Positions 10,912-61,072 of a stretch of DNA of 64,000 nt are shown in pieces. The translations under genes and the position numbers were made by a program. The notes beneath the pieces were generated by a model that did not search any database, was not told the origin of the DNA, and saw only the letters and a program-made list of their open reading frames with translations. Location of the stretch: the NCBI GenBank assembly GCA_038214535.1, contig JBBQRS010000009.1:4176-68175 (forward strand), given 5' to 3'. Within the stretch, counting starts at the first letter, position 1. Every line of letters starts with the position of its first letter. The DNA comes from Anaerolineae bacterium. Lineage in GTDB: Bacteria > Chloroflexota > Anaerolineae > CG2-30-64-16.

Positions 10912-11969
10912 GCGTTGTCAGATTCGCTGCCCGGTGGGGTGTTTCCGTTGAAGAGGGCCGGCTGGTCGGGCGATTCGGGATAGGGCTCGCCCAGATGCGC
11001 GTAGGCGCGTCGGGTTGCCACGCGGCCGCGGGGAGTGCGCTCCAGGAAGCCGAGTTGCAGCAGATATGGCTCGACGACATCCATGATGGTATCGGGCTCT
11101 TCGGAGAGCGCCGCCGCAATGGTCTCCAGCCCGGCCGGCCCGCCGCGAAAGTCGCGGATCAGCCGGAAGAGCACCTGCCGGTCGAGGTTGTCCAGCCCCA
11201 GGTCGTCCACGTCGAGCAGTACCATCGCCTCACGGGCGACGTCGGCGGTGATGACCCCGTCGGCCCTGACCTGGGCATAGTCGCGCACGCGGCGCAACAT
11301 CCGCAAGGCGACGCGGGGCGTGCCGCGGCCGCGCCGGGCGATTTCCGAGACGCCCGCCTCGGTCGCGGTCACTTGCAGCAGTCCGGCGGCGCGCTCGACG
11401 ATGCGCTCCATCGCTTCCGGCTCATAGAAGTCGAACCGGTAGACCGCCCCGAAGCGCGCCCGCAGCGGCGCGGTCATCAGGGCGAGGCGGGTGGTCGCGC
11501 CGATCAAGGTGAAGCGTGGCAGCTTGAGCCGGATGTTCCGCGCGCTCGGCCCCTTGCCGATGACGATATCCAGCGCGAAGTCTTCCATCGCCGGGTAGAG
11601 CACTTCTTCGACGGCGCGGCCCAGGCGATGCACCTCGTCAATGAAGAGGATGTCGCCCTGGCGCAAATTGGTGAGAATTGCGGCCAGGTCGCCCGCCCGC
11701 TCGATGGCCGGCCCCGCCGTCACCTTCAGGCCGACGCCCATCTCGTTGCTGATGACGTGCGCCAGGGTAGTCTTGCCCAGGCCGGGCGGGCCGTAAAGCA
11801 GGACGTGATCCAGCGGCTCGCCCCGGCTGCGCGCGGCCTCGATGAGGATCATCAGGTTCTCGCGCAACCGGTCTTGCCCGACCATCTCGGTCAGGCTGTG
11901 GGGGCGCAGGGCCGCATCCACCACGACTTCTTCGGGGCGGCTCTGGGGTGCAATTGGGCGGTCAACCAT
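10908..11969 (-). CDS. ruvB: Holliday junction branch migration helicase RuvB.
   Basis: '[23 protein letters not shown]', '[10 protein letters not shown]', and a winged-helix C-terminus. Four-nt overlap with queA. Confidence 0.95.
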
Positions 11970-12073
11970 CGGTTTTTTGTTACTCCGTAGCGCACATTAT
12001 ACCAGAAACACCGCACATGGGATATCAGGGATTCCAAAGCAGGTTCAAAACTTAAAGTTCGTATGCGCGCCGG

Positions 12074-15662: not shown

Positions 15663-15673
15663 GCTCCCAAGCC

Positions 15674-15735
15674 TTTGTAGTGACGGCTTTAGCCGTTGCG
15701 TGCGCCAAAACGGCTGAAGCCGTCACTACGAAGGC
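15674..15735. repeat. Nested palindromic intergenic repeat, copy 1 (REP-like), acting as a bidirectional terminator between convergent genes.
   Basis: TTTGTAGTGACGGCTTTAGCCGTT, 12-nt spacer, AACGGCTGAAGCCGTCACTAC. Each arm contains an ACGGCT/AGCCGT mini-hairpin. In minus orientation it is followed by TTTTGG. A near-identical copy lies at 29946-30010. Confidence 0.7.
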
Positions 15736-29945: not shown

Positions 29946-30010
29946 CTTTGTAGTGACGGCTTCAGCCGTTGTCGTGCCCCCCCAAAACGGCTGAAGCCGT
30001 CACTACAAAG
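29946..30010. repeat. Nested palindromic intergenic repeat, copy 2, with perfect 24-bp arms.
   Basis: CTTTGTAGTGACGGCTTCAGCCGT, 16-nt spacer, ACGGCTGAAGCCGTCACTACAAAG. Lies between the stop of the flippase-like gene and the start of the DUF11 gene. In minus orientation the inner hairpin is followed by TTTTGGGGGGG. Confidence 0.75.
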
Positions 30011-41209: not shown

Positions 41210-44110
41210 ATGTCCGATCTCGCCCTGTTCATTCCCATCCTGTTGCCCCTGCTGGGCGCATTGCTGGCCGCGCTCTATGGTCTTCCAGGAGTCAATCGGC
41301 GTTTGTCGCTGCGGGGCGTGTGTTGGGCGCTTGCCGTCCTCCCGTTGATCTCGTTCCTGTTCCTGCTGGGTCGTGTCGCCGATGTCAACGCGGCCGGCCC
41401 GCAGACCTTCCGCGTTGCCTGGATTCCCTCGCTGGGCGTCAATTTCTCTCTGTGGCTGGATAGCTTGAGCCTGCTGTTTTTGCTGCTGGTGTCGGGCATC
41501 GGCGCGCTGGTGGTCGTCTACAGCGGGTATTATTTCTCCGCGGGCAGCGAGTGGCGCTTCCTGACCTACTTGTTCCTGTTCATGACCGCCATGTCCGGCA
41601 TCCTGCTGGCGGGCGACGTTGTGACGCTGTTCCTCTTCTGGGAAGGCACCAGCGTCACATCGTTCCTCCTGATTGCCTACAAGACTTCGGATGCGGCGGC
41701 GCGGCGCGGCGCGTTCAAGTCGCTCTTCATCACGGGCGGCGGCGGCGTGGCGATGCTCGCCGGGTTGCTGTTCACGGCCTCGGTGGCGGGCGGGCTGGAT
41801 TTCGCCACGATCCTCGCCAGCGGCGACGTGTTGCGCAGCAGCCCGATCTACCCGGTGATGCTGGCGCTGGTGGCGTTCGGCGCGTTCACCAAGAGCGCGC
41901 AAGCCCCGGCGCACATCTGGCTGCCAGACGGGATGTCGGCCCCCACTCCGGCCAGCGCCTATCTCCATTCCGCCACGATGGTGAAGGCCGGCATCTACCT
42001 GATGGCGCGCATGAACCCGGCGCTGGGACAGACCGAGTTATGGTTCTGGCTGCTCACCGGCTTCGGGCTGTTCACCATGATGCTCGGCGCGTTCGTCGGC
42101 CTGAAGCAACGTGATCTCAAGGCCCTGCTGGCCTACTCGACCATCAGCCAGCTCGGCGTGATGATGATGCTTATCGGCGATGACACGTCTGCCGCCTTCA
42201 AAGCGCTGGTGGTGAGTGTGGTGGCGCACGCATTGTACAAGAGCGCGCTCTTTCTTGTCGTTGGCATCATTGACCACGAAACGGGCACGCGCAATGTCTA
42301 CCGGCTGGGCGGGCTGCGTGCATCTATGCCGCGCACGATGGTGGTCGCGACCGTGGCCGCGCTCTCGATGGCCGGTCTGCCGCCCATGTTCGGCTTCCTC
42401 GCCAAGGAGACTTTGTTGGCCTCGGTGACGCACCCCTCGATGCCGCCGGTGCTGGGCAGCATCCTCGTCGGCGGCGTTCTGTTTGCCGCGGCCTTCCTCT
42501 TTGCCCAGGCCGGCACGCTGATTTGGGATACGTTCATGGGGAAACCGCGCGACCCGGAGGTTCACGGCCACGAACCGCCGGTCTGGATGCTGCTGATGCC
42601 GGCGGTCCCGGCCCTGCTGTCGCTGACGCTGGGTCTGCTGCCCGAGCCGAAGGCGCTGGCCGAATTCATATCGCGCGCTGCCGAGGCGGCCTATGGCGGC
42701 CAGGTCAAGGTGTCGCTGGCGCTGTGGGCAGGGATTACGCCGCCACTCGTCCTGAGCATTATCGCCATCGCCGGCGGCTTCGTGATCTGGCTCAACCGGG
42801 GTCGCGTCATCGCCTGGCAGGGCGGCTTCGCCGATCGGTTCTCGGCCAACCGGCTTTACGATGGGACGCTGAGCCTGCTGGATCGCACCGCGGGACTGGC
42901 GCTGCGCACGCAAGACGGCCACCTGCGGCATTACCTTGCGACCATCCTGATTGGCGCGGGCGCGTTGATCGTCCTGCTGGGCGAGATCCCGCAGACGGCA
43001 TCCGCGCTGACCTTCGGCCCGCCCGCCGAATTGCCCCTGTTGCGCGTCTTCGCGCTGGCGCTGGCCGCCGCTTCCGCCGCGGCTTCGATCATCCTGCGCC
43101 GCGACTTTTTCGCGATCCTGGCGCTCAGCACCTCCGGCCTCAGCATCGCGCTATTGATGCTATTACAGCCCGCGCCCGACGTGGCACTGGTGCAGGTGGT
43201 GGTTGACCTGCTCAGCGTGGTGGTGCTGACGCTGGCGCTGACCATCATCCCGCGCGAACAGCTCATGCGCGCAACCCTGCTCACCTACCGGCAAAGTCGC
43301 CCCGAGTTGTTCCGCGACATCGCGATTGCGGTGGGCGCGGGCTTTGTGATGACCTCCGTGAGCCTCTTCTCTCTGACGTCGCGGCCGCGCGCTTCGGTCG
43401 TTACCCCCTACTACGAGGCAGGCGCGAAACCGCTCACCGGCGCGGCCGATATCGTCGGCGCGATCGTGGTGGATTTCCGCGGGTTCGATACGCTGGTCGA
43501 AATCACCGTCTTCGCCATGGCCGGCATCGGGATGTACACCCTGATCCGTTACGCGATGCACCATGACGCAGCGTCATTCGCCACAACGGTGCGCGCCCAG
43601 TTGCGCAAAGGGGTAGCTCAACCGGACGCCGCCCCCGCGCACACCGTCTTCGGCATTGACGGGATGCCTACGTCGTCGTTGATACACCTGCTGGCGTATG
43701 TTCTCCTGCCGGTGATGATGGTCCTCGGCGCGACGCAAGTGATGTATGGGCACGACCAGCCGGGCGACGGCTTCACGGCGGGGGTGATCATCAGCCTTGC
43801 CATCGCGTTCTGGTACGTCGTCTTCGGCTATCAGGAGACGCGCCGCAAACTGCGATGGCTCAAATCGTCGCTCCTGGTGGGCCTGGGCCTGTTGCTGCAA
43901 ACCGTCAACGCATCCCTGACCGCGCTGTTCACGGGATCGTTCTTCAGCCATGTAGATTATGGCGCATTGGTTGGTCTGCCGCTGCCCAAAGGTTTTAACT
44001 TCAGTTCATCCTTTATCTTCGAACTCGCGATTTGCATCACGGTGCTGGGCGGCGCGACCTTGATCCTGGGCGCGCTTGGCCACCCGACCGACCCACCGGT
44101 GGAGGGATAG
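41210..44110 (+). CDS. mrpA: Na+/H+ antiporter subunit A fused to subunit B (MrpA/MnhA, 966 aa).
   Basis: NuoL-like multi-TM protein with a C-terminal MrpB-like extension. First gene of the mrp cluster. Confidence 0.85.
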   Translation: MSDLALFIPILLPLLGALLAALYGLPGVNRRLSLRGVCWALAVLPLISFLFLLGRVADVNAAGPQTFRVAWIPSLGVNFSLWLDSLSLLFLLLVSGIGALVVVYSGYYFSAGSEWRFLTYLFLFMTAMSGILLAGDVVTLFLFWEGTSVTSFLLIAYKTSDAAARRGAFKSLFITGGGGVAMLAGLLFTASVAGGLDFATILASGDVLRSSPIYPVMLALVAFGAFTKSAQAPAHIWLPDGMSAPTPASAYLHSATMVKAGIYLMARMNPALGQTELWFWLLTGFGLFTMMLGAFVGLKQRDLKALLAYSTISQLGVMMMLIGDDTSAAFKALVVSVVAHALYKSALFLVVGIIDHETGTRNVYRLGGLRASMPRTMVVATVAALSMAGLPPMFGFLAKETLLASVTHPSMPPVLGSILVGGVLFAAAFLFAQAGTLIWDTFMGKPRDPEVHGHEPPVWMLLMPAVPALLSLTLGLLPEPKALAEFISRAAEAAYGGQVKVSLALWAGITPPLVLSIIAIAGGFVIWLNRGRVIAWQGGFADRFSANRLYDGTLSLLDRTAGLALRTQDGHLRHYLATILIGAGALIVLLGEIPQTASALTFGPPAELPLLRVFALALAAASAAASIILRRDFFAILALSTSGLSIALLMLLQPAPDVALVQVVVDLLSVVVLTLALTIIPREQLMRATLLTYRQSRPELFRDIAIAVGAGFVMTSVSLFSLTSRPRASVVTPYYEAGAKPLTGAADIVGAIVVDFRGFDTLVEITVFAMAGIGMYTLIRYAMHHDAASFATTVRAQLRKGVAQPDAAPAHTVFGIDGMPTSSLIHLLAYVLLPVMMVLGATQVMYGHDQPGDGFTAGVIISLAIAFWYVVFGYQETRRKLRWLKSSLLVGLGLLLQTVNASLTALFTGSFFSHVDYGALVGLPLPKGFNFSSSFIFELAICITVLGGATLILGALGHPTDPPVEG

Positions 44111-44112
44111 GC

Positions 44113-44445
44113 ATGGATTTGTTACAGGCGTTAGCCATCGGCGTGATGTTCGGCGTAGGCGTCTTCCAACTGCTGCGCCGCAACGTCATTCGCACCGCCA
44201 TCGGCATGTTGATCCTCTCGAACGCCGTGAACCTGTTCCTGTTGACCGCCGGCGCGTATGACGGCATCGTGGACGCCTACACCAATCTCGCCGGCCAGCG
44301 CAGCGACGCGTTGCCGCAGGCGCTCGTCCTCACCGCCATCGTCATCAGCCTGGCGGGTTTCTCGTTTGTGCTGGCCCTGCTCTACGCGATTTCAATGCGT
44401 CTGGGCACGGCCGATTCCGATGAGATGGACCGGCTAAAACATTGA
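44113..44445 (+). CDS. mrpC: Na+/H+ antiporter subunit C (NuoK-like).
   Basis: Three-TM protein of 110 aa; start at MDLLQALAIG. Confidence 0.8.
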   Translation: MDLLQALAIGVMFGVGVFQLLRRNVIRTAIGMLILSNAVNLFLLTAGAYDGIVDAYTNLAGQRSDALPQALVLTAIVISLAGFSFVLALLYAISMRLGTADSDEMDRLKH

Positions 44446-45932
44446 ATCCGCATCTCGTCCTGTTGCCCATCCTGATTCCGCTTGCGGGGACGCCGGTAGC
44501 TCTGCTGCTGCGCCGGCGACCGCGCGCGCAATCGGCATGGGCGTTAGGCGTGATGCTCACCACGCTGCTGGTCAGTCTCCGGCTGCTCGGGGTGATCTGG
44601 AGCGGCGGCCAACCTGTCACCTTCCAGCTTGGCGGTTGGCCTGCGCCCTTCGGCATCACCCTGATGGGTGACCTGCTTGGCGTGACGATGACGGTGATGT
44701 CCGCGCTGGTGCTGGGCCTGGGTCTCGTCTATGCGGCGGGTTGCGGCGACCGCTGCATCACCTACCCGCATTTCTACCCGCTTTTCCTGGCCCTGGCCGC
44801 CGGGCTGATCGGCATCTTCCTGACCGGCGATATCTTTAACATGTTTGTCTTTGCCGAACTGCTGGTGATCTCCGGCACAGCGCTGACGGCCATCTCCGAT
44901 GACCCAAACGGAACCGAGGCGGCCTACAAATACTTCTTCATGAGCCTGCTGGCGTCCATCTTCCTGCTGATCGCGATGGGTAGCCTCTACGTGGCCTACG
45001 GCACGCTGAATATGGCCGACCTGGCGCAGCGTATTGCCGCCGAACCGGCCCGCCAGCCCGCGCCGCTGGCGATGGCGCTGCTTTTCGCCTTCTTCATGGT
45101 GAAGAGCGCCGTCGTGCCGTTCCACTTCTGGCAACCCGATTTTCACGCCGCCTCGCCGACGCCGGTGAGCGCGATGCTCTCATCGGTGGTGGTCAAGGTC
45201 GGCGTTTACGGCTTCATCCGCATGACGACGCTGTTGTTCGTCCCGGTGGCCGCGCCGCTTAAGACGGCCCTCATCGTACTCGGTGTGGTTGGCGTGATTT
45301 TTGGTGGGTTCACGGCGCTGGGCGCAACCCACGCCAAGCGGATGTTGGCCTACTCGACGCTGGGGCAGGTCGGCTTTATCCTCGTCGCTATCGGCTGGGG
45401 CACGCCGGCCGCGCTGACGGCGGCGATCATCCTGACCTTCAACCACAGCCTGATTAAGGCGGCCATGCTGATGCTGGCGGGCGCAGTCGCCAGCCGCGCG
45501 CCGGTGAAGTCCGCGTCCTTCGATGTGATCACCGGGATGGGCAAGGCCATTCCCTTCGGGGGGGTGTTGTTCTTCATCGGCGCGCTGGCGCTGGCCGGCG
45601 TGCCGCCCACCAACGGTTTCGTGGGCAAGCTGACGCTGTTCGGCAGCGGCATCCAGGCGCAAGCCTACCCGGCGCTCCTACTGATCGGCGTCTTCAGCAT
45701 CATGACGCTGATGTACGTCATCCGCGCGTTCCAGGTCATCTGGTGGACGCCGCCCGCCGAGGGCCAAAAAGCCAAATCGAAGGGCGATGCGTTATTGGCC
45801 CCGGCGATTCTGATCGGCCTGTGCGTGTTGCTGGGCCTGTGGAGTGAACCGCTGGCGCGCCTGGCTGTGGATATCGCCGGATCGGTGGGAAATCCGGCTC
45901 TGTACATCCTGACCGCCCTGGGAGGGAGATAG
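44442..45932 (+). CDS. mrpD: Na+/H+ antiporter subunit D (NuoN/M-like).
   Basis: 496-aa multi-TM protein of proton-pumping subunit type. Confidence 0.85.
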   Translation: MNPHLVLLPILIPLAGTPVALLLRRRPRAQSAWALGVMLTTLLVSLRLLGVIWSGGQPVTFQLGGWPAPFGITLMGDLLGVTMTVMSALVLGLGLVYAAGCGDRCITYPHFYPLFLALAAGLIGIFLTGDIFNMFVFAELLVISGTALTAISDDPNGTEAAYKYFFMSLLASIFLLIAMGSLYVAYGTLNMADLAQRIAAEPARQPAPLAMALLFAFFMVKSAVVPFHFWQPDFHAASPTPVSAMLSSVVVKVGVYGFIRMTTLLFVPVAAPLKTALIVLGVVGVIFGGFTALGATHAKRMLAYSTLGQVGFILVAIGWGTPAALTAAIILTFNHSLIKAAMLMLAGAVASRAPVKSASFDVITGMGKAIPFGGVLFFIGALALAGVPPTNGFVGKLTLFGSGIQAQAYPALLLIGVFSIMTLMYVIRAFQVIWWTPPAEGQKAKSKGDALLAPAILIGLCVLLGLWSEPLARLAVDIAGSVGNPALYILTALGGR

Positions 45933-46412
45933 ATGCAACGCGTTGTTGCCGGAGCGGGCCTGCTGGCGTTATATCTCGCCCTGACGAGCAATCTGACGCT
46001 ATCGAATATGATTGTCGGCGCCGTTGTGGCGGCGTTGATCGCCGCGCTCTTGCCGATCGAAGCGCGCCCCTTTGATCTGCGTCGGCTGGTGGTTGCCCTG
46101 GGTGCGGCGATCCTCTACGTCGGCGTCCTGATGCTGGATGTGGTCAAGAATGGCGTCACGATGGGCAGGCTGATCCTGAATCCGCGACTGCCGATGAACC
46201 CCGGCATCGTCGCCATTCCCGCCTGCTGTCAAAGTGAGTTGGCGACGGCCTTGAGCGCACATGCCATGACGGTCTCGCCGGGCGAGTTGGTGATCGGCAT
46301 TGACGCCGTGGGCGTGATGTACACGCATATCCTGGATGTATCCAAAGAGACCGAATACACCGAGGACGCAAGCGGTCGGCGCCGGAACCTGTTGAGCAGG
46401 ATTTTCCCATGA
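45933..46412 (+). CDS. mrpE: Na+/H+ antiporter subunit E.
   Basis: 159-aa protein with two TM helices at its position in the operon. Confidence 0.7.
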   Translation: MQRVVAGAGLLALYLALTSNLTLSNMIVGAVVAALIAALLPIEARPFDLRRLVVALGAAILYVGVLMLDVVKNGVTMGRLILNPRLPMNPGIVAIPACCQSELATALSAHAMTVSPGELVIGIDAVGVMYTHILDVSKETEYTEDASGRRRNLLSRIFP

Positions 46413-46684
46413 GCGCCGCCCTCTCATTCGTCCTGCACGCCGCCCTGATATTGCACATCGCGCTGATCGCGTTGTGCGTCTGGCGCGTCTGGCGCGGCGA
46501 AAACGTGATTGATCGCCTGATCGGCGCGGATCTGGTCGGCACGCTGATTCTCGGCATGTTGGTGATTATTGCCATGATCCGCGGCAACGCGCTCTACATT
46601 GACGTAGCCCTGGGGCTGGCGGCCCTGGGCTTCGTCAGCACCATCGCGCTCGCCAAATATGTCGCCGACGGGCGGATGTTCTGA
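46409..46684 (+). CDS. mrpF: Na+/H+ antiporter subunit F.
   Basis: 91-aa protein with three TM helices at its position in the operon. Confidence 0.7.
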   Translation: MSAALSFVLHAALILHIALIALCVWRVWRGENVIDRLIGADLVGTLILGMLVIIAMIRGNALYIDVALGLAALGFVSTIALAKYVADGRMF

Positions 46685-46691
46685 GGATGCC

Positions 46692-47048
46692 ATGACGACT
46701 TTGCTGCAAGCTTTCGCGATCCTCGCCATCATCACCGGCGCGGCGTTCTCCACCCTGGGCGTGCTCGGATATTATCGCCTGCCCGACGTCTATACCCGGC
46801 TACACGCCACGGGCAAGGTGAGCGTCTTCGGCGTGGTGTTGCTGGTGGTTGCCGCGGCCGTGCTGACCCCTCTGGGCTTCGGCAAGGGGCTGGTGCTGAT
46901 CTTCATGCTGGTGCTCGGCGGCCCCGTCGCATCACACGCCATCGCCTCGGCGGCGCATACCATCGGCATTCCCCTGGCGCGTACGACGCGTGACGATCTG
47001 GCCGTAGTTCAGGATGCCGCGCCATTCGACCCGGGGGCCGGTTCGTAA
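46692..47048 (+). CDS. mrpG: Na+/H+ antiporter subunit G.
   Basis: About 118 aa. 'MTTLLQAFAILAII...' TM helices. Last gene of the operon. Confidence 0.7.
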   Translation: MTTLLQAFAILAIITGAAFSTLGVLGYYRLPDVYTRLHATGKVSVFGVVLLVVAAAVLTPLGFGKGLVLIFMLVLGGPVASHAIASAAHTIGIPLARTTRDDLAVVQDAAPFDPGAGS

Positions 47049-51419: not shown

Positions 51420-52745
51420 TTAACGCGCGATCTGCGGCAAGTGTAACTGGAAGGACTGCGCCCGGATCCCGTGTGGGCCGGGACCATCGGGCGTCCGGGT
51501 GTGGCAAACCGTGCACCGATTCGCCGCCCCGATAGCGAGGTTCACGCCCTGCAGATCCAGGAACTTGATGGCGTCATTCGGCTCGCGGCTGGGCGCGATG
51601 GCATGGGTGCTATCGTGGCATGCTTCGCAATATAACCCGCCATGTCCGCGCGATTGACGGTATAGCGGTTGATCCTGGGCATATTGTGCGCCGTGACAGT
51701 TTGCGCTGTCACAACGCGGCTCGTTCAGCCAGGGGTTCCGATTCTGACTCACGTGTTCCATGGAGCCGTGACAATCAACGCAGTCCATGCCGCGCTGCGA
51801 CATCACGTCGCGCAGGCATTTGGTCTGCGGCCCCGGATGGCAATTGTAGCAGCCGTCCTCATCGTTGCTGACTTTATCGGCGTGCTTCTCGTGCATGGCT
51901 TTTGAGAGATTTGGCACACCGGGCGCGCCCGGCGCGCCCAGGGCGTTGGATGCGTGACACTCGGCGCACAGGATGGGCGTGCGCCCTGTTAGTGGGCCGG
52001 TGTGCCCCGGCGGATACTCACCCTGATTCTCTTTGTCGTGCAGAGTCAGGATGTTCAACTCGACAGAACCAGTGGCGATGTCCTCTTGCATTCCGTCGGC
52101 GTGACAGAAATCGCAGCGCATTTCCGTAGAGACCGGGCTGACGGTGGTGGCTTGTGTCAGCATCTGGCCGGTGGCTGTATTTCTTACAGCGATGGTGGCC
52201 AATTGATACGGGTAGGGGGCCGGATGCGCGGGATTGGCCGCATAGTCGGCATCGCGAAACTCAGTGAGCGGAATCCCTTCGGCCACGAAGTAAGACTTGC
52301 CCGGCAAGAGGTCCATATCACCGCTCAGTCCATTGCCGGTGAGACCGACATTGGGCGGCAAGTCCACGCCGAACAGCGCAAGGTCGTATTGCCAGAAGTT
52401 GGACTTGCCGACAGAGAAGGTGTTTTCGGGGAAGCCGTAACTGATGGAGACGCCGTCTGTCACGATCACGGGTGGGTTGCCGCGCAGGACCACCTGCGCC
52501 CAGAGGTTATTGTAGGGCGGCAAGACCGCAAGATATCGGAAATCGCGGTTATAGCAGTGCATTCCCAGGTCGTTCCAGCTCAGGACAACGTAGTCATCCG
52601 TTGCCGGCGCAGATACATCGGGCGCAGCCGCCGCGGAGGATCTGTCGGCGGATAGTCCGAGGACGAGCGCTGCACTTAGCGCCAGCCCACAGATAGCAAA
52701 CAAGAGGAGTTGCGGTTTCGCTTGTCTGTTCACGTCTTCCTCCAC
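51420..52745 (-). CDS. Secreted multiheme c-type cytochrome with six canonical CXXCH motifs.
   Basis: CDFCH, CAECH, CYNCH, CVDCH, CEACH and CTVCH motifs. Signal peptide. GTG start inferred. Confidence 0.8.
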   Translation of the reverse strand: MEEDVNRQAKPQLLLFAICGLALSAALVLGLSADRSSAAAAPDVSAPATDDYVVLSWNDLGMHCYNRDFRYLAVLPPYNNLWAQVVLRGNPPVIVTDGVSISYGFPENTFSVGKSNFWQYDLALFGVDLPPNVGLTGNGLSGDMDLLPGKSYFVAEGIPLTEFRDADYAANPAHPAPYPYQLATIAVRNTATGQMLTQATTVSPVSTEMRCDFCHADGMQEDIATGSVELNILTLHDKENQGEYPPGHTGPLTGRTPILCAECHASNALGAPGAPGVPNLSKAMHEKHADKVSNDEDGCYNCHPGPQTKCLRDVMSQRGMDCVDCHGSMEHVSQNRNPWLNEPRCDSANCHGAQYAQDQPLYRQSRGHGGLYCEACHDSTHAIAPSREPNDAIKFLDLQGVNLAIGAANRCTVCHTRTPDGPGPHGIRAQSFQLHLPQIAR

Positions 52746-52923: not shown

Positions 52924-54759
52924 TCAAAGTCCCAATGCCGCCAACGTCTCGGACGAGGGCGCGCCGTCGGGGAGCCAGCCGCGCCCGGCGTAGTACTCCT
53001 CCAGGATCAGCGGCAGGTCGGGCAGGTTGCCTTCCGCGCCGCCGGAGGGTCGCGGTTGGGTGAGGATGCGCGGAGGCAGCGTGTCGTCTGCGCGCCGGAT
53101 GCCGTAACGGTTGTTGATCAGGCGCTTGAGGTTGAAGATGCGCGCGCCGGTGGTCAGCAACTCGTCGCCGGTGATGTTCCAGCCGGTCGCCACTCCGACG
53201 AAGCGGGCGACGTCATCCGGCGGGAGGCCCGTCTTGCCGATGAACTTGCATAGGCCCAGCGGGTTGTACGTCCCGAAGTAGTCTTGGAAGGCGATGGTCA
53301 CCGCGACCGCGCCGGGGCTGGCGAGCCGGTCGTGCGGGCCTTCTTGCCAGCCTGGGAATTCGATGCCGTAGCCGCGCCAGTAGGCGATAGACTCAAGGTG
53401 GCACGCGCCGCGCGCCGCGGTCGCATAGGTCGCGCCCATTGAGACGAAAGCTCGTGGATCATGATAGGGCAGCTCCATGCCCTTGACGTGGGCCGCGAAT
53501 TCGTCCGCGCCGCGGCCCAGATGCGCGGCCGCGGCGCGCGCCCCATCGGCCAGATACGCGCCCGCGCCTTCCCGTGCGGTGATGAGGTCGAGAAGCCGGA
53601 ACGCGCCGACAGGCTCACCCCATTCGAGCGCCACGCCGCCCGTATCCTCCGGGCCGATCAGCCCGCGCTCGAACGCCTCATAGGCGAACGCGATGACCGA
53701 CGAAGAGCTGATGGTGTCCAGCCCAGCGCGCGCACACAGATCGTTCAGCGCGGCGATGGAGGACAGATCGTCGTTCAGGAGTTGTGCGCCGAAACCGGCC
53801 AGCGTCTCATACTCCGGGCCTTCGCCGCGCACGCCCGCGTATGGCCCCTCGCGCACTTCGATCAGCTTGCCACACCCGATGGGGCACGCGTAACAGAAGG
53901 TGTGCTTGACCCACATCTGCTCGTGGATGGACGGGCCGGAGATTTTTTGCGCGCCCTCGGGCCATGAGCCGTCGCGCCAGTTGCGCAGCGGCAGGTCGCC
54001 CTTGCCCTCCGCGCCGACTACGCCGCCTGCTGTGCCAAAGTTGGACATCGGCATGGAATGCTCTTTGATGAAGGCATTATCCTCGCGCACGCGGTCGCGG
54101 AAGCCGGTGGGGTCGGCATAGACCGGTTTATCCCTCCCCCGGCAGACGATGCCCTTGACGTGTTTGCTGCCCAGCACCGCGCCCATGCCGCCGCGTCCCG
54201 CGGCGCGGCTGTGCTCACGCCCGCCCTGCATCACGTTGGCGAAGTGGACGAGGTTCTCGCCCGCGGGGCCGATGACCGCGGCGCGCGCCTTTGGGTCAGT
54301 TGCCGCCACCATCGCGTCGAACGCGTCGTAGGTGTCCATGCCCCATATCGCGGATGCGTCACGAATCTCGGCCATCTCGTCGTGGACGTAAAGATAGACC
54401 GGCTTCTCGGCGCACCCGATGATCACCAGCCCGTCCAGCCCGGCGAAGCGCAGTTCCGCGCCCCAGTGACCACCCATGTTCGACTCGTTCCAGATGCCCG
54501 TCAGCGGGCTACGACCACACCAGCTCGATCGACAGCCGGTAGGCGCAAATGTGCCGCTCATCAGGCCGTTGAAGATGTAGATGGGGCTGCGCGGGTCGAG
54601 CGGCGGCGAGTCGGGGTCCATCTCGCGGTGCATCAGCAGGGCCGCATATCCGCTACCCAGGTAGAAACGGCGGACGTCCTCGTCGGCGATGGTCTCGATG
54701 TGCTGCTCGCCGCTGGTCAGGTCAACCCGCAGATATTTCCCTGCATGAACATAGGTCAT
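52924..54759 (-). CDS. Tungsten-type aldehyde:ferredoxin oxidoreductase (AOR family), paralog 1.
   Basis: 'MTYVHAGKYLRVDLTSGEQ' AOR N-terminal domain. 611 aa. Cys-rich 4Fe-4S/pterin-binding region. Confidence 0.85.
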   Translation of the reverse strand: MTYVHAGKYLRVDLTSGEQHIETIADEDVRRFYLGSGYAALLMHREMDPDSPPLDPRSPIYIFNGLMSGTFAPTGCRSSWCGRSPLTGIWNESNMGGHWGAELRFAGLDGLVIIGCAEKPVYLYVHDEMAEIRDASAIWGMDTYDAFDAMVAATDPKARAAVIGPAGENLVHFANVMQGGREHSRAAGRGGMGAVLGSKHVKGIVCRGRDKPVYADPTGFRDRVREDNAFIKEHSMPMSNFGTAGGVVGAEGKGDLPLRNWRDGSWPEGAQKISGPSIHEQMWVKHTFCYACPIGCGKLIEVREGPYAGVRGEGPEYETLAGFGAQLLNDDLSSIAALNDLCARAGLDTISSSSVIAFAYEAFERGLIGPEDTGGVALEWGEPVGAFRLLDLITAREGAGAYLADGARAAAAHLGRGADEFAAHVKGMELPYHDPRAFVSMGATYATAARGACHLESIAYWRGYGIEFPGWQEGPHDRLASPGAVAVTIAFQDYFGTYNPLGLCKFIGKTGLPPDDVARFVGVATGWNITGDELLTTGARIFNLKRLINNRYGIRRADDTLPPRILTQPRPSGGAEGNLPDLPLILEEYYAGRGWLPDGAPSSETLAALGL

Positions 54760-54790
54760 CGAAAATCTCCAGATTTACCAAGAAGACACG

Positions 54791-54880
54791 AAGACACGAA
54801 GTTTTTTGCCACGAATTTCACGAATTGAGCGAATTTATGAAAGAATCTTTTTCAATTCGTATAATTCGTGAAATTCGTGG
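54791..54880. promoter_or_regulatory. AT-rich array of ACGAA(G) half-sites, including an 18-bp perfect inverted repeat, at the AOR1 promoter / AOR2 3' end.
   Basis: GACACGAA repeated twice in tandem. CCACGAATTTCACGAATT at 54809-54826 and AATTCGTGAAATTCGTGG at 54863-54880. ATTCGT repeated three times at 8-9 bp spacing. Confidence 0.5.
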
Positions 54881-54887
54881 CTCCTTT

Positions 54888-56780
54888 CTATGCCAGCCAG
54901 GCCAGGTCGAGTTCCCGTAGCTTGGCGGGGGTTGGGTTGCCGGTGGCGACGTCCCAGCCGCACAGCGCATAGTAGTCATCCAGCGCTGCAGCCAGTTCCT
55001 CGCGGGTCACGGCCACACCGTCTGACGCGCCGCCCACCAGCGGGTCATCGAAGATGCGCTTCGGTAATGTGTCCTGATCGCGGCCCGCGCCCTCGCGCGC
55101 GTTGAAGGCGCGCATCAAGTTCAAGCGGCGCTCGCCGACGCGCTGCATCTCCTCGATGGTGAAATCCCAGCCGGTGGCGGCCCGCATCAGCGCGACCATG
55201 TCATCCGGCCCGAAGAGTTGCCACGACGGCCCATAGACGAACTGGCACAGGTCAGCGGTATCCATGAACGAGTAGTTCCACTGGGTGCGCATGGCATATT
55301 CGACCTTCGCGTGGTTGAGCGTCTGATTAGGTTGCGGGTCGGTGAGACCGAGCTGCGCCAGCCGTGTCAGGCTCTCCGCCGCCGCGTCAGGCGTGTAGCC
55401 CGGATCGTGTTCGTGCGATTGGTGGTCGGCCCCGAACGGGTTGACCGCGTAGATCAACGCGAGGCTGCGCTTGACCTGTGGCATGTGCGCCGGAAGCTCG
55501 CCCGCCTTGACGGCGACCACGTAGTCCTCAGAGCCTTTGCCGATGGCCTGCGCGGCGAGCGCGGAGCCTTCGCCCAGTAGCCGGCCCAATCCTTCGCGGT
55601 GTGCGATCTGCTCGACCATTTTCAGCATCGCGTCGGCGTCGCCGAAACGTAGCTCGATGCCGCCGGTATCCTCAAGCGTCAGGATGCCCCGCTCGAAGCA
55701 TTCCATGGCCCAGGCGATGGTCGCGCCGCACGCGATGGTGTCCACGCCGTACTCGGCGCAGAGCTGGTTCGCCAGCGACACGGCGGCGAGGTCGCCCACC
55801 ATACAGTAGGAGCCGAAGGTCGCCAGCGACTCATACTCCGCGCCGCCGTACAACCCGATCACGTCGCGTCCCTGGTACTCCGTCTCGACCACGCGCTTGC
55901 AGCGGACGGAGCAGGCGTAGCAGGTGTCGTTTTCCACCAGGATGGTGTCGGCCATCGTTTCGCCGCAAATCTCGTCGGCCTGCGCGAAGGTTCCGCTCGT
56001 GTAATTGCGTGTGGGCAACCCGCCGCTGGTGTCCTGATACATCACGACGCCCCCGGTGCCGTACTTTTGGAGCGCTTCGACATCGAGGTATTCGGGGATG
56101 GACTTTGCGCCTCGGCGCGCCAGCTTCGCAACGGCGGTTTTGTCGGCCAGGTTGATCTTGCCGTGACCGCGCACCGCGATGGCCTTGAGGTTTTTGCTGC
56201 CCATCACCGCGCCCATGCCGGTGCGCCCGTGGGCGCGATTCGACATGTTCATGATGGCTGCATAACGCACACCGCGCTCACCGGCGATGCCGCATTGCGC
56301 GACCTCGATCTTGGAGTCGCCTAACTCTTCCTGGATCAGGCGTTGCGCATCGCCGGTGGTCTGGTCCCACAGGTGTGACGCGTCGCACAGTTCCGCTTCG
56401 CCGTCATGCACCCAAAGGTAGACGGGGGTCGCGCTCTTGCCGGTGACCACGATGCCGTCGAACCCGGCGAACTTGAGCTCGGCGGGCCAGAAGCCGCCGG
56501 CCTGGCTGTCGCCGATCAGCCCGGAGAGCGGGCTTTTGGCGGTCGCGGTGGCGCGGCTCTGCCCGCTGATGGGCGCGCCGGTTGTGGCCGAAAGCATCAG
56601 GCTCAGCGTGTTTTCCGGCCCCAACGGGTCGGCCCCGGCGGGAGTGTTTTTCAGCAGGTAGTAAACGCCCATAGCGCTGCCGCCCACGTAGGTGCGATAA
56701 AATGCCTCTTCGGGCTGCTCGACCTCAATCTGCCCCGTGCTCAAATCAACGTGTAAAATCCTGCCCGCATATCCGTACAT
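54888..56780 (-). CDS. Tungsten-type aldehyde:ferredoxin oxidoreductase (AOR family), paralog 2.
   Basis: 'MYGYAGRILHVDLSTGQ'. 630 aa. Collinear with paralog 1. Confidence 0.85.
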   Translation of the reverse strand: MYGYAGRILHVDLSTGQIEVEQPEEAFYRTYVGGSAMGVYYLLKNTPAGADPLGPENTLSLMLSATTGAPISGQSRATATAKSPLSGLIGDSQAGGFWPAELKFAGFDGIVVTGKSATPVYLWVHDGEAELCDASHLWDQTTGDAQRLIQEELGDSKIEVAQCGIAGERGVRYAAIMNMSNRAHGRTGMGAVMGSKNLKAIAVRGHGKINLADKTAVAKLARRGAKSIPEYLDVEALQKYGTGGVVMYQDTSGGLPTRNYTSGTFAQADEICGETMADTILVENDTCYACSVRCKRVVETEYQGRDVIGLYGGAEYESLATFGSYCMVGDLAAVSLANQLCAEYGVDTIACGATIAWAMECFERGILTLEDTGGIELRFGDADAMLKMVEQIAHREGLGRLLGEGSALAAQAIGKGSEDYVVAVKAGELPAHMPQVKRSLALIYAVNPFGADHQSHEHDPGYTPDAAAESLTRLAQLGLTDPQPNQTLNHAKVEYAMRTQWNYSFMDTADLCQFVYGPSWQLFGPDDMVALMRAATGWDFTIEEMQRVGERRLNLMRAFNAREGAGRDQDTLPKRIFDDPLVGGASDGVAVTREELAAALDDYYALCGWDVATGNPTPAKLRELDLAWLA

Positions 56781-56803
56781 TGGTAATTCTCCTCATATTT
56801 TTT

Positions 56804-56866
56804 ACCACGAAGGAACGAAGAAGTGAAGTCTTTAAAAAAATCTTCGTTACTTCGCTTCTTCGTGGT
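56804..56866. promoter_or_regulatory. AT-rich inverted array of three ACGAAG units per arm at the AOR2 promoter.
   Basis: ccACGAAGgaACGAAGaagTGAAG, then tctttaaaaaaat, then CTTCGTtaCTTCGCttCTTCGTgg. In gene orientation it is followed by TGGTAAAAAAT (extended -10-like) and GAGGAG (Shine-Dalgarno). Confidence 0.5.
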
Positions 56867-56950
56867 GAATCCCTTTGACATGCTCCAGATTATAGTCCGA
56901 AAGAGCCATCTGTTCCAACCAGGGCCGAACTACAGAGTTTCGGCGGTTGG

Positions 56951-58069
56951 TTATGGGGTGTTCACCGGCGCTTTCGTAGCTGCGGGCTGTTGCTGGGTGA
57001 TGCAGTGGATGTTCCCACCGCCCAGCAGAATCTCCCGCGCGGGTATGCCCACGATACGGCGTTCGGGCAACAGGCGCGCCAGCGTTTCCAGCGCCGCGGC
57101 GTCATAGGGGCTGTTGAAGGTGGGCACGATGACGCCGCCGTTGGCGATGTAGAAATTGATGTAGGAGGCGGCGAGCCGGTTGCCCGCGCGGCGCGGCAGT
57201 GTGCCCGGTGCGTGTTGCACGCTGGCGCTCTCCTCTGCGGTGACGGTCAGTGGGTCGGGCTGGTGCAGCTTGACCACCTCCAGCGTGCGGCCGCGCGCGT
57301 CCGACGCCCGGCTCAGGCGTGCGTAGGCGTCCTGCGAGATTGGGTATTGCGGGTCGGTCGTGTCGCCCGTCCAGGTGAGGGTCACAACGCCGGGTCGGAC
57401 GAAGCAGCACAGGTTGTCTACGTGACCGTCCGTCTCGTCGCCATAGACGCCCTGCCCCAGCCAGATGATCTTCTCGATGCCCAGGTAGGCGCACAGATAC
57501 GCCTCGATCTGGGCTTGCGACAACGCGGGGTTACGGTTGGAATTGAGCAGGCATTCCTCGGTGACCAGCAGCGTCCCTTGCCCGTCGGCGTGGATCGCGC
57601 CGCCCTCCAGTACCAGCGGCGCGGCGTAGCAATCCAGCCGCTCGATCTCCAGTATCTTGCGCGCAACCAGTGTATCCTGTTCCCAACTCGCGTAGATGCC
57701 ACCCAGCGCGCCGCCGTAGGCGTTGAATTCCCAATCCACGCCGCGCACTTCGCCCCGGTCGTCTACCACGAAAGTGGGGCCGGTATCGCGCGCCCAGGCG
57801 TCGTCGCCGGCGATTTCGACCACGCGCACTTCGGGGGGCAGCAGACGTCGTGCATTGGCCCATTGCATGGCCGACGCGCCCACGCTCACCAGCTCGAAGC
57901 GAGCGATGGCTGTGGCAACGGCCGCGAACGCACCCTGCGCCGGAACTGCTGACTCGCGCCAGTTGTCGGGCCGTTCCGGCCATAGCAGCCAGCAACCGGC
58001 GTGCGGCTCCCATTCGGCGGGCATATGGAACCCGTCGGCGCGGGGGGTGGTGGTCAGGGTGCGCATCAT
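56951..58069 (-). CDS. aguA: Agmatine deiminase (PAD_porph family).
   Basis: '[25 protein letters not shown]' is the canonical AguA N-terminus. Start at the MMRTLTT ATG, four nt after the upstream stop. Confidence 0.85.
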
Positions 58070-58073
58070 GGCG

Positions 58074-59084
58074 CTACTCCGCGAGCAATGTCTCGATGCG
58101 CCCGCGGTGATACGCATGCAGGGCGAGCGAAGACTGTTTAAGACGCGGCTGAATCAACCACGCAAGCAACGCCTTCTCGGTGTGCAGGCGATTTTCGGCC
58201 TGGTCGAAGATGATGGATTGCGGCGAATCCAGCACCTCGTCGGTGGCCTCGACGCCGCGCGATGCAGGGAGGCAGTGCATGAACTGGCAATGCGCCGGGG
58301 CCAGCCGCAGCAAGTCCATGGTCACCTGATAGCGCGGCATGAAAGCGGCGCGCCGATCCGGGATCTCGTCTTCCTGGCCCACCCACCACCAGAGGTCGGT
58401 GTAGAGGAAGTCGGCTTTGCGCACGGCGGCCTCGACATCCTCGGTAATGGTCAGGCTGCCGCCCGACGCTGCGCAATTGGCTTCTGCCAGCGCGCGCCAC
58501 GCGACAGGGGGTTGATACCTTTCGGGCGCGGCGTGAGTGAAGTGCATTCCCAGCCGGGTGCAGATCAGCATCAACGAATTGAGAACGTTGGTCGCGTCGC
58601 CGACGAAGGTGACATGCAGGTCTTCCAGCCGCTTGCCCGCGGGTAGATATTCGGTCATGGTGAAGACGTCACACACGGCCTGCGTGGGATGGTTGTAGTC
58701 GGTCAGGCCGTTGATCACCGGCACGGTGGCCGTCTCCGCCAGTTCGGTGATCGTCGCATGTTTCAGGGTGCGCGCCATGATGCAATCGGTCATGCGCGAG
58801 ATGACTTTTGCCGTGTCGCCCAGCGACTCGCGCGCGCCCAGGTGAATTTCGCCCGGCTTGAGATAGAGCGCGTGACCGCCGAGTTCCGTCATCGCGACCT
58901 CGAACGAAATGTGCGTCCGGGTGGACGGCTCCTCGAAGATCATCGCCAGCGACGCATCGGGCAACAGCTTCGGGGTCACGCCCTGTTGATCGGCTTCCTT
59001 CAGCCTGCGCACCAGTTCGATCAGATGGAGTAATTCTTCCCGGGTGTAGTCTTGCGTGTCAACGAAATGGCGTAGTTGCATCAC
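58074..59084 (-). CDS. Putrescine/ornithine carbamoyltransferase (ATCase/OTCase family), putrescine carbamoyltransferase by context.
   Basis: '[12 protein letters not shown]' carbamoyl-phosphate motif and 'HCLPA' motif. Sits between aguA and patA. Confidence 0.8.
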
Positions 59085-59092
59085 GTAGACCC

Positions 59093-60451
59093 CTAAACCG
59101 CTGCGCTGATTTCGGCCAGCGTATCGGCCAGCCGGTCGAGCACGGCGTCAATCTGCTCGTAAGTGATAATCAACGGCGGCTCGATGCGGACGGTGTGTGC
59201 GCTGGTGAGCGTTCCAGCAACCAGGACGCCGCGCTGGAACAGCCCCGCGGCGACTTTGTAGCCGATCTCTGCATCATTGAAGTGTTGCCCGATGAGCAAG
59301 CCCTTGCCGGTGATGCCCTCGTAGATGGCGGGGTATTGTTCGGCCAGCGCGTTCAGGTGCGCCATGAAGTACTCGCCCTTCGCGGCGGCCTGCTCCCACA
59401 ACCGGTCGCGCAGCGTGACGTTGATGGCGGCGATGGCCGCGCTGCACGCCAGCGCCCCGCCGCCGGTGGTGGTGGTGTGGATGAACGGGTTGGGGTCCAT
59501 CATCACCTGCCAGATTTCTTCGGTCGAGCAGAAGGCGCTCACGGGCATCACGCCACCGCCCAGCGACTTGGCGACCGAAAGGATGTCGGGCGCGACGTCC
59601 CAGTGATCCACGCCCCAGAGTTTGCCGGTGCGGCCCATGCCGGTCTGCACCTCATCTGCGATGAGCAGCACGCCATAGCGCCGGGTCATCTCGCGCAAGC
59701 GCGGCCAAAAGTCATCGGGAGGCACGATCGCGCCGGCCTCGCCCTGGATCGGCTCCATCAGGACGCCGGCAATGTCTACGCCCACCTGTTGACAGATTGC
59801 GAGCTGACGCTCCACTGCATCGGCGTCGCCGTAGGGCACGTGGTAGACCGGCCCGCCGTAGAGCGTGCCGGGCGGCTGGCGATAGTCGGCCTTGCCCATC
59901 ATGCTTAGGCTGCCCATCGTCTTGCCGTGGAACGCCTTGACCGCGACAATGAAGCCGTTCTTCTTCGTGTACATTTTCGCCAGTTTGATCGCGCCCTCGA
60001 TGGCCTCGGTGCCGCTGGCGCAGAAGAAGCTGTACTTGATGTCACCAGGGGTAATCTGGGCCATCAGGCGAGCCAGCACACCACGCAGCGGGTCAATCAG
60101 CTCCTGGCTGGGCATGGGGGTGCGGTCGAGTTGGTTGCGCACCGCCTCGACCACTTCGGGGTGGCCCCAGCCCAGGTCCATCATGCCGTAACCGCCCAGG
60201 CAATCAATGTATTCGCGGCCCAATACATCGCGGAAGATTGCGCCTTCCCCCGTCCATTCCGTCACGGCCCAATCGCCGGCCTCCGTCACCGACTTGCGAT
60301 AGTTCAGCCAGCCGCGGTTGAAATGCTCGGCGAAATTATACAGGCTTTCGTTGATGATTTCCTTGCCCTGGGCTTCGGACACAACGGGGGATTTGATGAG
60401 CTCGAGCCAGCGCGTCGAGTAGGCGATAGCGTCATCGAATGATTGTGGCAT
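59093..60451 (-). CDS. patA: Putrescine aminotransferase (class III PLP aminotransferase, PatA/YgjG-like).
   Basis: N-terminus collinear with E. coli PatA (NRGWLNYRKSVT...REYIDCLGGYG...SQELIDPLR...KYSFFCASGTE). Confidence 0.8.
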   Translation of the reverse strand: MPQSFDDAIAYSTRWLELIKSPVVSEAQGKEIINESLYNFAEHFNRGWLNYRKSVTEAGDWAVTEWTGEGAIFRDVLGREYIDCLGGYGMMDLGWGHPEVVEAVRNQLDRTPMPSQELIDPLRGVLARLMAQITPGDIKYSFFCASGTEAIEGAIKLAKMYTKKNGFIVAVKAFHGKTMGSLSMMGKADYRQPPGTLYGGPVYHVPYGDADAVERQLAICQQVGVDIAGVLMEPIQGEAGAIVPPDDFWPRLREMTRRYGVLLIADEVQTGMGRTGKLWGVDHWDVAPDILSVAKSLGGGVMPVSAFCSTEEIWQVMMDPNPFIHTTTTGGGALACSAAIAAINVTLRDRLWEQAAAKGEYFMAHLNALAEQYPAIYEGITGKGLLIGQHFNDAEIGYKVAAGLFQRGVLVAGTLTSAHTVRIEPPLIITYEQIDAVLDRLADTLAEISAAV

Positions 60452-60478
60452 AGAGAACGCTCCTTCGGTGAAATGGAG

Positions 60479-60955
60479 TCAGGCGGCGCACCGGCCCGAT
60501 GGGATAGGCCAGCCGTGGTCGTCTTTAAGGATGATGGGCAGCAAGACGGTGGTCGTCCTGCGGACGCCGGGGACATCGGCAATGACCTCGGTGACGAAAC
60601 GGTAGAGGCTGCCGTTGTCTTCGGCCACGATCTGGATGCTCAGGTCGTTCGCGCCGGTCGAGCACGCGACGTAGGTGACACAGTCGAATTCCGCGATCTG
60701 CTTGCCGGCAGCCATCACGCGCCCTGGTTCGACTTCGATAAACACGTCCGCCGTAACAGGCAGCCCAACGGCGGCGCGGTTTACGACCGCGGTTACCTGG
60801 ATGACCTTCTCGCGGATCAAGCGGTCGAGCCGGTAGCGGACGGCGCGTTCGGTGATATTGCCGATACGTTGGGCCATGTCTGCACCCGACATGCGCCCAT
60901 CTTCGATCAGCAGATCAACAATCGCGCGGTCAATGGGGTTAATTTTGGTAGGCAT
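60479..60955 (-). CDS. Lrp/AsnC-family transcriptional regulator.
   Basis: HTH 'IDRAIVDLLIEDGRMSGADMAQRIGNITERAVRYRL' plus a C-terminal RAM domain. Start set at MPTKINP. Confidence 0.8.
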   Translation of the reverse strand: MPTKINPIDRAIVDLLIEDGRMSGADMAQRIGNITERAVRYRLDRLIREKVIQVTAVVNRAAVGLPVTADVFIEVEPGRVMAAGKQIAEFDCVTYVACSTGANDLSIQIVAEDNGSLYRFVTEVIADVPGVRRTTTVLLPIILKDDHGWPIPSGRCAA

Positions 60956-61072
60956 GACGGCATCCGTAGGAGTAACACTGTTTCGGAAGGAAATGCTACC
61001 TTGTGTTTCCGAAAACGTCAAAGAATGGGAAATATATGATGATAATGCCGTAATTAAAATCTGGAGTCCGCG

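Follow-up and report, generated by a model that had tools for sequence, protein, structure and literature searches.

The stretch of DNA analysed here (the window; 64,000 nt, 64% G+C) comes from contig JBBQRS010000009.1 of an Anaerolineae bacterium and carries, at 52.9–61.0 kb, a cluster of six open reading frames (ORFs) that all lie on the minus strand. They encode an AsnC/Lrp-family regulator, the putrescine aminotransferase PatA, a putrescine carbamoyltransferase (PTC), the agmatine deiminase AguA and two aldehyde:ferredoxin oxidoreductases, AOR2 and AOR1. On balance we favour the view that this set of six represents a reduced version of a polyamine/diamine catabolic operon conserved in the Chloroflexota, with AOR2 oxidising 4-aminobutanal to γ-aminobutyrate (GABA). 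That AOR2 is functionally associated with diamine/polyamine catabolism is very likely, judging from its gene linkage. The substrates, the ferredoxin acceptor, the use of tungsten and the direction of flux are all predicted from comparative genomics.

The cluster and the conserved context of AOR2

The ORF calls agree in order (lrp-patA-PTC-aguA-AOR2-AOR1), strand and coordinates with the gene list of an earlier reading made from the sequence alone (the sequence-only reading):

60479–61021, minus strand: AsnC/Lrp-family regulator, first gene of the cluster (Pfam HTH_AsnC-type and AsnC_trans_reg)
59093–60451, minus strand: PatA/YgjG-type putrescine (diamine) aminotransferase, class III (NF008570, 4UOX)
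58074–59084, minus strand: PTC (TIGR04384 score 518, above the cut-off of 500; Pfam OTCace_N and OTCace)
56951–58072, minus strand: AguA (TIGR03380 score 557, cut-off 382; NF010070 score 564, cut-off 483)
54888–56780, minus strand: AOR2, aldehyde:ferredoxin oxidoreductase of the AOR/WOR family (AFOR_N and AFOR_C)
52924–54759, minus strand: AOR1, second AOR/WOR-family enzyme (AFOR_N and AFOR_C)

The regulator ORF opens at a TTG at 61021, with an ATG at 60955 as the likelier start. The mechanical ORF of AguA reaches 58117 and overlaps PTC, but the profile alignment begins at residue 19–23 of this long ORF, and the true start is therefore probably the Met pair near 58072. PatA reaches 594 bits with NF008570 (cut-off 612) and 480 with TIGR03372 (cut-off 659). 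Its best PDB match is 4UOX, the putrescine aminotransferase of E. coli (438 bits across the entire length; next family 253), and more than 100 homologues with at least 81% identity were found, many of them named putrescine aminotransferase by the source records. The spacers from lrp through patA and PTC to aguA are 27, 8 and ∼1 nt, followed by 170 nt between aguA and AOR2 and 128 nt between AOR2 and AOR1. All six ORFs are intact. The dN/dS values against relatives are 0.06–0.22 across PatA, PTC, AguA, AOR2 and AOR1 (PatA 0.07–0.13, PTC 0.06, AOR2 0.08–0.22, AOR1 0.06–0.20), and the cluster genes are thus under purifying selection.

Eighty loci from a contig scan with AOR2 were scored by tblastn (L-numbers denote the homologous loci compared). 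Counts of gene context were restricted to loci whose flanks reach at least 5 kb upstream and at least 1.5 kb downstream, and PatA, other class-III aminotransferases, Pot-type/APC transporters and a Sacchrp_dh-family gene (SDH) were counted as polyamine-type genes. Such genes were present at 5 of 6 loci with AOR2 identities of at least 70%, at 11 of 20 loci with 60–69% and at 5 of 15 loci below 60%. No polyamine genes were seen at L009 (AOR2 70% identity), where the ORFs are fragmented. Over 10 Chloroflexota assemblies, independent of each other, show AOR2 relatives (58–94%) linked to polyamine genes, and AOR2 (61–94%) is joined to PatA, SDH, a 418-aa class-III aminotransferase (AT418) or transporters in L001/L004, L002/L005, L007/L085, L010, L012, L067, L105/L106 and L086. 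Homologous clusters headed by an AsnC gene were seen in L001, L085, L010, L012, L100 and L103.

The closest relative is a Chloroflexia metagenome-assembled genome (MAG; L001/L004), whose AOR2 is ∼93–94% identical to that of the window and which has the order AsnC-PatA-PTC-AguA-APC permease-SDH (401 aa)-AOR2-AT418-AOR1-cytochrome. A Thermoflexales MAG (L002, AOR 73%) has PatA-aminotransferase-PTC-AguA-PotABCD-type ABC transporter-SDH-AOR, and L085/L007 (AOR 72%) have AsnC-PatA-PTC-AguA-SSF-APC permease-SDH-AOR-aminotransferase-BFN, with SSB in one flank and DnaB in the other. The window's cluster, in contrast, lies between SbcD and a cytochrome, and such unrelated flanks around a shared gene set indicate that the module moves as a unit. 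The gap between SDH and AOR2 is only 14–39 nt in some relatives (19 nt in L085, 39 nt in L002). More distantly, the usual pattern of the group with 57–64% identity is AsnC-PotABCD-aminotransferase(s)-AOR-SDH-like.

The reverse test, from PatA, used two PatA homologues with 83–85% identity that occur on 18 and 3 contigs. Both (L100/L103) lie in the string AsnC-AT3-AT3-Aldedh-SSF-PatA-SDH-SSF-AOR-AT3-(LarA)-AOR-ThiS-like, where AT3 is an aminotransferase and LarA is not always present. The first AOR (636 aa) is 58% identical to AOR2 and the second has 567 aa; the AT3 that follows the AOR after a gap of 10–18 nt is 63% identical to AT418. The lone Aldedh gene sits with the two other aminotransferases, and the companions of PatA are SDH, the AOR and the GabT-like gene. 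As PatA orthologues occur in PatA-SDH-SSF-AOR-AT3 strings, PatA leads back to an AOR.

Among the additional genes of these clusters, the SDH is nearest to carboxy(nor)spermidine dehydrogenases (CASDH; 8DEB, 4INA; NF043000 215 bits), AT418 resembles GABA-aminotransferase (GabT; TIGR00700 430 bits, cut-off 507), and the binding protein of the clusters' transporter is PotD-like. The 401-aa CASDH-like gene is found nearly always beside PatA and/or AOR (L085 8776–9981, L001 8373–9578, L100 11471–12676), and its product might oxidatively cleave spermidine-type secondary amines, the reverse of CASDH chemistry. A HemL-like class-III aminotransferase (L002 960–2264) scores 664 with the NCBIfam model for guanitoxin GntE, above the cut-off of 525, and has homologues in L014, L019, L039, L042, L057 and L100; the GntE name is probably over-specific for these aminotransferases of polyamine clusters.

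Pairings of this kind were also seen further afield. A Eubacteriales MAG (L063, 1692–8465) carries PatA, a GadC/TyrP-like APC antiporter on the opposite strand, an AOR, an ornithine carbamoyltransferase and a DDAH/amidinotransferase-like protein. The AOR is 56% identical to AOR2, and PatA scores 652 with NF008570, above the cut-off of 612; this is a second phylum in which PatA is paired with the AOR2 clade, here in arginine/citrulline-type surroundings. In L088 (8684–11740) an AOR of another clade (34% identity to AOR1) has a class-III aminotransferase directly upstream, together with ABC ATPases. Pairing of an aminotransferase with an AOR may recur in different AOR clades.

Reduction of the cluster and signals before the AOR genes

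The window cluster has arisen by deletions from a larger operon. By blastn it is collinear with L004 at 85–89% identity, with two segments missing. The first (L004 6912–9905) carries the permease and SDH, of which a 55-nt piece is left, and the second (L004 11987–13290) carries the 418-aa aminotransferase that separated AOR2 from AOR1. L105/L106 (AOR2 85%) also have SSF-permease-SDH-AOR2-AT418-AOR1, which marks the fuller form as ancestral for this lineage. The GabT-like aminotransferase gene separates AOR2 from AOR1 in L004 and L105, and it follows AOR2 in L085, L012 and L100. A further reduced form is found on the metagenomic contig L086, which holds just PatA-AOR2-AOR1 (81%, 75% and 75% identity) and suggests that PatA and the AORs are a viable minimal unit. 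The traces of the deletions and the hairpins before the AOR genes are:

56873–56927, minus strand: SDH gene remnant, 55 nt (blastn to L004 8768–8822, 89% identity)
56801–56869, minus strand: long AT-rich hairpin (inverted repeat) of CGAAG repeats with period 8 (fold −39.8 kcal/mol)
54808–54881, minus strand: hairpin of CACGAAttt repeats, 28-nt arms 89% complementary (fold −40.4 kcal/mol, z = −5.9)
54774–54806, minus strand: lone 3′ arm of a hairpin that lies before AOR1 in relatives; direct repeat with the AOR2 leader

The translation of the SDH remnant, RPWLEQMALSDYNLEHVKG, corresponds to SDH residues 21–39. The hairpin at 56801–56869 lies just before the ribosome-binding site (RBS) of AOR2 and has a homologous one upstream of AOR2 in L004 and L105. 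The counterpart of the hairpin at 54808–54881 is found in L004 at ∼11903–11981, before the AT418 gene that is deleted from the window. The full AOR1 hairpin is present in L004 (13258–13317), the blastn junction being L004 11987|13290, and the lone 3′ arm at 54774–54806 marks the deletion junction. The spacers before the two AOR genes thus consist of deletion scars and hairpins and are not ancestral gaps.

A promoter-like TTGGAA-18 nt-TATAAT is found at 56918–56889, inside the SDH remnant and ahead of AOR2. In L086 (∼3270–3320) the same SDH piece is the sole one kept (PWLE..DYN; TTGGAG-18 nt-TATAAT), again upstream of AOR2 and with another 3′ boundary. Among intact SDH genes TATAAT was read in L001 and L105 and not in more distant ones. 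It is plausible that the site at 56918–56889, as predicted from its sequence, is an internal promoter that has become the AOR2 promoter. A separate AOR2 promoter leaves the conserved linkage standing. The terminator scan found no intrinsic terminator between aguA, AOR2 and AOR1, the hairpins having no U-tract.

Hairpins of the same kind are a wider feature of these operons. In L004 and L105 a hairpin of 60–75 nt lies directly before the RBS of each of SDH, AOR2, AT418 and AOR1 (in L004 also at 8598–8682 and 9921–9982; in L105 in the intergenic regions). The arms are tandem repeats of period 8 or 9 (CACGAAnn(n) or CGAAGnn) whose sequence varies by copy and genome and whose complementarity stays. 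Similar hairpins were seen in L052 and L066; more distant relatives have gaps of 19–39 nt and no hairpins. An Rfam search of 52–62 kb gave no family for the hairpins, only sub-threshold matches to miRNA precursors; neither a Moco/Wco riboswitch nor any other RNA of a known kind is present in that interval.

The AORs, the proposed pathway and its alternatives

Both AORs have AFOR_N and AFOR_C domains (PF02730 E ≤ 1e-64, PF01314 E ≤ 1e-117) and align over their full length with the P. furiosus AOR 1AOR (382 bits for AOR2, 392 bits for AOR1), while being only 34% identical to each other. The [4Fe-4S] ligands of the P. furiosus enzyme, which we take to be Cys288/291/295/494, are all kept (CYACSVRC and DLCQF in AOR2, CYACPIGC and GLCKF in AOR1, CYACPIGC and GLCLF in 1AOR), and CxxCxxxC was found in 118 of 118 members of the AOR2 clade. 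Second-shell residues in the AOR family are Thr243, Glu313, Tyr427 and His448 (PMC12096430). Thr243, Glu313 (EYE) and His448 are kept in AOR2 and AOR1 alike, and position 427 is His instead of Tyr in both (ELPAH in AOR2, ELPYH in AOR1). ELPAH occurs in 110 of the 118 AOR2-clade proteins and is a trait of the clade; the same replacement is found in the active AOR-Cf and WOR5 (PMC12096430, a 2025 review of tungsten enzymes). The second shell of the AORs here is AOR-like and not YdhV/BamB-like, and tungsten would be the metal and ferredoxin the acceptor.

The two enzymes differ in how widely they follow the polyamine genes. AOR2 homologues number thousands, and the best 120 have 67–94% identity and come mostly from Anaerolineae-type MAGs. 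AOR1 was found after AOR2 only in the window, L004, L105 and L086, and a metagenome scan with AOR1 gave a single close relative, L086; AOR1 is tied to the polyamine module only in this narrow lineage. The sequence-only reading had treated the two adjacent AORs together. For AOR2 the linkage is borne out at many Chloroflexota loci, but not for AOR1, which is 34% identical to it and confined to the narrow lineage. AOR1 may take a second aldehyde or be redundant.

That reading had further noted that no NAD-dependent aldehyde dehydrogenase (ALDH) accompanies PatA. This holds for the whole 64-kb window, in which tblastn with E. coli PatD (E ≤ 1e-3) found no gene of the ALDH superfamily; the same query found no NAD-type ALDH within ±10 kb at loci with AOR2 identities of at least 70%. 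A PROSITE scan for ALDHs had zero matches everywhere and was discarded as a false negative, as tblastn with PatD found many in the loci. The window also has no second class-III aminotransferase, and its cluster has no agmatine/putrescine antiporter (APC permease), which the relatives do have.

In the pathway we propose, AguA would convert agmatine to N-carbamoylputrescine, PTC would split this into putrescine and carbamoyl phosphate, and PatA would transaminate putrescine to 4-aminobutanal. AOR2 would then oxidise 4-aminobutanal to GABA, and the electrons would leave through its [4Fe-4S] cluster for a ferredoxin whose gene lies elsewhere. Acid/aldehyde couples have a potential low enough for ferredoxin reduction, which would apply to this cluster as well. 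The fuller ancestral operon would have read AsnC-PatA-(PTC-AguA)-amine transporters-CASDH-like dehydrogenase-AOR2-GabT-like aminotransferase(-AOR1). In such clusters the GabT-like enzyme would carry GABA on to succinate semialdehyde, and AOR2 again or AOR1 would give succinate, with two transaminase/AOR rounds per diamine. Oxidation of 4-aminobutanal to GABA is the simplest candidate assignment for AOR2 because the reduced clusters have PatA as their only constant partner, because no ALDH is present locally and because PatA groups with the AOR and not with the ALDH in L100.

A still wider scheme is conceivable, in which polyamine catabolism is linked to ferredoxin in the Chloroflexota (Anaerolineae/Thermoflexales) and also in one Eubacteriales lineage or more. 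Here the ELPAH clade of AORs would act on aminoaldehydes and semialdehydes, a reversed CASDH-like enzyme would split spermidine-type amines to a diamine and an aminoaldehyde, and polyamines would end as dicarboxylates with low-potential electrons gained at each aldehyde step. We put this forward tentatively and would sooner expect it to fail in some part than to hold as a whole.

Several observations weigh against the assignment of AOR2 to 4-aminobutanal oxidation in a working pathway. Among the more distant AOR2 homologues, roughly every second one lacks polyamine genes within 10 kb. An Aldedh gene lies beside the AORs in the sister clusters L100–L104 and at many of the loci with 57–64% identity, so that the AOR is not simply a stand-in for an absent ALDH, and a patD-like gene elsewhere in the source genome is quite possible. 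The notion that an AOR replaces a missing ALDH applies only to the window's sub-lineage. 4-Aminobutanal cyclises to 1-pyrroline, we know of no AOR that has been tried on 4-aminobutanal, and the substrate of AOR2 could be another aldehyde of the module. The clostridial-type ferredoxin motif CxxCxxCxxxCP does not occur in the window. The sequence-only reading had pointed to carbamate kinase as a gene to look for; tblastn with E. coli YbcF detected none in the window or near the clusters in the related non-E. coli loci L001–L098. With the transporter, SDH and GabT-like genes gone, the local pathway is incomplete beyond GABA, and the window cluster may be decaying. The role in the pathway that the sequence-only reading gave to the AORs thus gains from the conserved AOR2-polyamine linkage and from the missing local ALDH, but loses from sister clusters with both ALDHs and AORs.

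The alternative that we take most seriously, while regarding it as doubtful, keeps AOR2 in the module and gives it another substrate, either an aldehyde from the CASDH-like enzyme (e.g., 3-aminopropanal from spermidine) or succinate semialdehyde. 4-Aminobutanal would then go to an NAD(P)-ALDH encoded elsewhere, and AOR2 and AOR1 would here be left-overs or have a narrower role. In most relatives AOR2 indeed has SDH immediately upstream (14–39 nt) and, immediately downstream, the GabT-like gene. The 60% group likewise has an SDH-like gene after the AOR, and the ALDH genes of the sister clusters point the same way. Yet L086 and the window have retained PatA, AOR2 and AOR1 without SDH or GabT at dN/dS values of 0.08–0.2, and in L100/L103 it is the other aminotransferases that accompany the ALDH while PatA accompanies the AOR. 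It is improbable that the AORs are general, independently transcribed detoxifiers of aldehydes whose place beside the agmatine/putrescine genes means nothing for the pathway. The spacers of 170 and 128 nt, the promoter-like site ahead of AOR2, the broad substrate range of characterised AORs (PMC12096430) and the distant homologues without polyamine neighbours would suit that explanation, but the linkage is kept in many genomes despite different flanks, with near-zero gaps in several, and the spacers of the window are scars and hairpins of later origin.

We consider it very unlikely that the module runs reductively, with the AOR reducing an omega-amino acid or dicarboxylate at the expense of reduced ferredoxin and the aminotransferases and CASDH-like enzyme building di-/polyamines. 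AORs do catalyse acid reduction (PMC12096430), and the closest relatives of SDH, the carboxy(nor)spermidine dehydrogenases/synthases, are biosynthetic. Against this, the clusters contain uptake systems (PotABCD-like, APC and SSF permeases) and a catabolic-type PTC instead of an N-carbamoylputrescine amidohydrolase, and they have no carboxyspermidine decarboxylase. An equally slight chance is given to the window cluster being a decaying relic that no longer has a function. Compared with close relatives it lacks three genes, of which a gene fragment and half a hairpin remain, but all six ORFs still present are intact, dN/dS with L004 alone as the reference is 0.06–0.08 (PatA, PTC, AOR2 and AOR1) and a similar reduced set persists in L086.

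The pathway with AOR2 as the 4-aminobutanal oxidase would join the logic of the E. coli PatA-PatD-GabT-GabD route to the AguA-PTC half of the agmatine deiminase (AgDI) pathway, with AOR/WOR enzymes at the aldehyde steps. With the E. coli route (PatA/YgjG-PatD/YdcW-GabT/PuuE-GabD) it shares a PatA-clade aminotransferase, a GabT-like second aminotransferase in the relatives and the sequence diamine, aminoaldehyde, omega-amino acid, semialdehyde, dicarboxylate. It differs in having AOR/WOR enzymes instead of NAD(P)-dependent ALDHs (in sister clusters alongside them), in the expected acceptor, which would be ferredoxin and not NAD(P)+, and in the AsnC-type regulator and, in the relatives, the extra CASDH-like dehydrogenase. 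The AgDI pathway of lactic acid bacteria (AguA-AguB/PTC-AguC-AguD) has AguA and PTC in common with the cluster, and in the relatives an APC permease lies by aguA; here, however, the permease is deleted from the window, the carbamate kinase is missing as described above and putrescine is apparently catabolised further and not exported.

As enzymes, the AORs share the fold and cofactor-binding residues of P. furiosus AOR/FOR and Aromatoleum aromaticum AOR (alignment to 1AOR), although AOR2 scores 382 bits to 1AOR and over 1000 bits to members of its own clade, and His replaces Tyr427. Unlike the AORs of A. aromaticum and P. furiosus, AOR2 lacks nearby partner genes of the AorA/AorC or polyferredoxin type, and its polyamine gene context is specific and conserved. 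AORs act downstream of transaminases also in the peptide fermentation of Thermococcales. For FOR, oxidation of glutarate semialdehyde and of C4–C6 semialdehydes from basic amino acids has been proposed (PMC12096430), and A. aromaticum AOR, according to a reference cited in PMC12041015, oxidises the aldehyde formed after Phe transamination and decarboxylation, anaerobically and alongside an ALDH.

A full-text literature search found no paper tying AORs to putrescine, 4-aminobutanal/aminobutyraldehyde or polyamines, and for AORs in Anaerolineae no polyamine link was found, the Chloroflexi genome papers treating AORs generically. The AOR-polyamine pairing recurs in related genomes and looks like a real and undescribed pathway variant. 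Sediments and digesters, in which Anaerolineae abound, receive a significant share of N and C as polyamines from decaying biomass. If the wider ferredoxin-linked scheme is right, it would give the AOR2 clade its first physiological role and add a new anaerobic route of polyamine turnover; a ferredoxin-reducing route would alter estimates of the energy yield of amine fermentation, and an AOR with activity on aminoaldehydes could be run backwards to make diamine or omega-amino-acid monomers. Most AOR/WOR clades are still without a known physiological role (PMC12096430), and the conserved operon context offers a directly testable set of substrates for one of them.

Surroundings of the cluster

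By eye, housekeeping genes flank the cluster: those on one side encode SbcD, HEAT-repeat and DUF1003 proteins, and those on the other phosphoglucomutases, Mrp antiporter subunits and a multihaem cytochrome c. The multihaem c-type cytochrome (51420–52745, minus strand; Cytochrome_C7 and MtrC/MtrF-like domain matches) lies directly downstream of AOR1. It was rejected as an AOR partner, as it follows AOR1 in L004 and not in L086. The region 41210–47048 on the plus strand is by eye an operon for an Mrp/Mnh-type multisubunit cation/proton antiporter (MnhA-like, 966 aa; MnhD-like, 496 aa; small subunits). A second, REP-like family of repeats, a long near-perfect palindrome (CTTTGTAGTGACGGCTTCAGCCGTT ... 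AACGGCTGAAGCCGTCACTACAAAG), occurs in two intergenic copies at 15670–15736 and 29946–30010.

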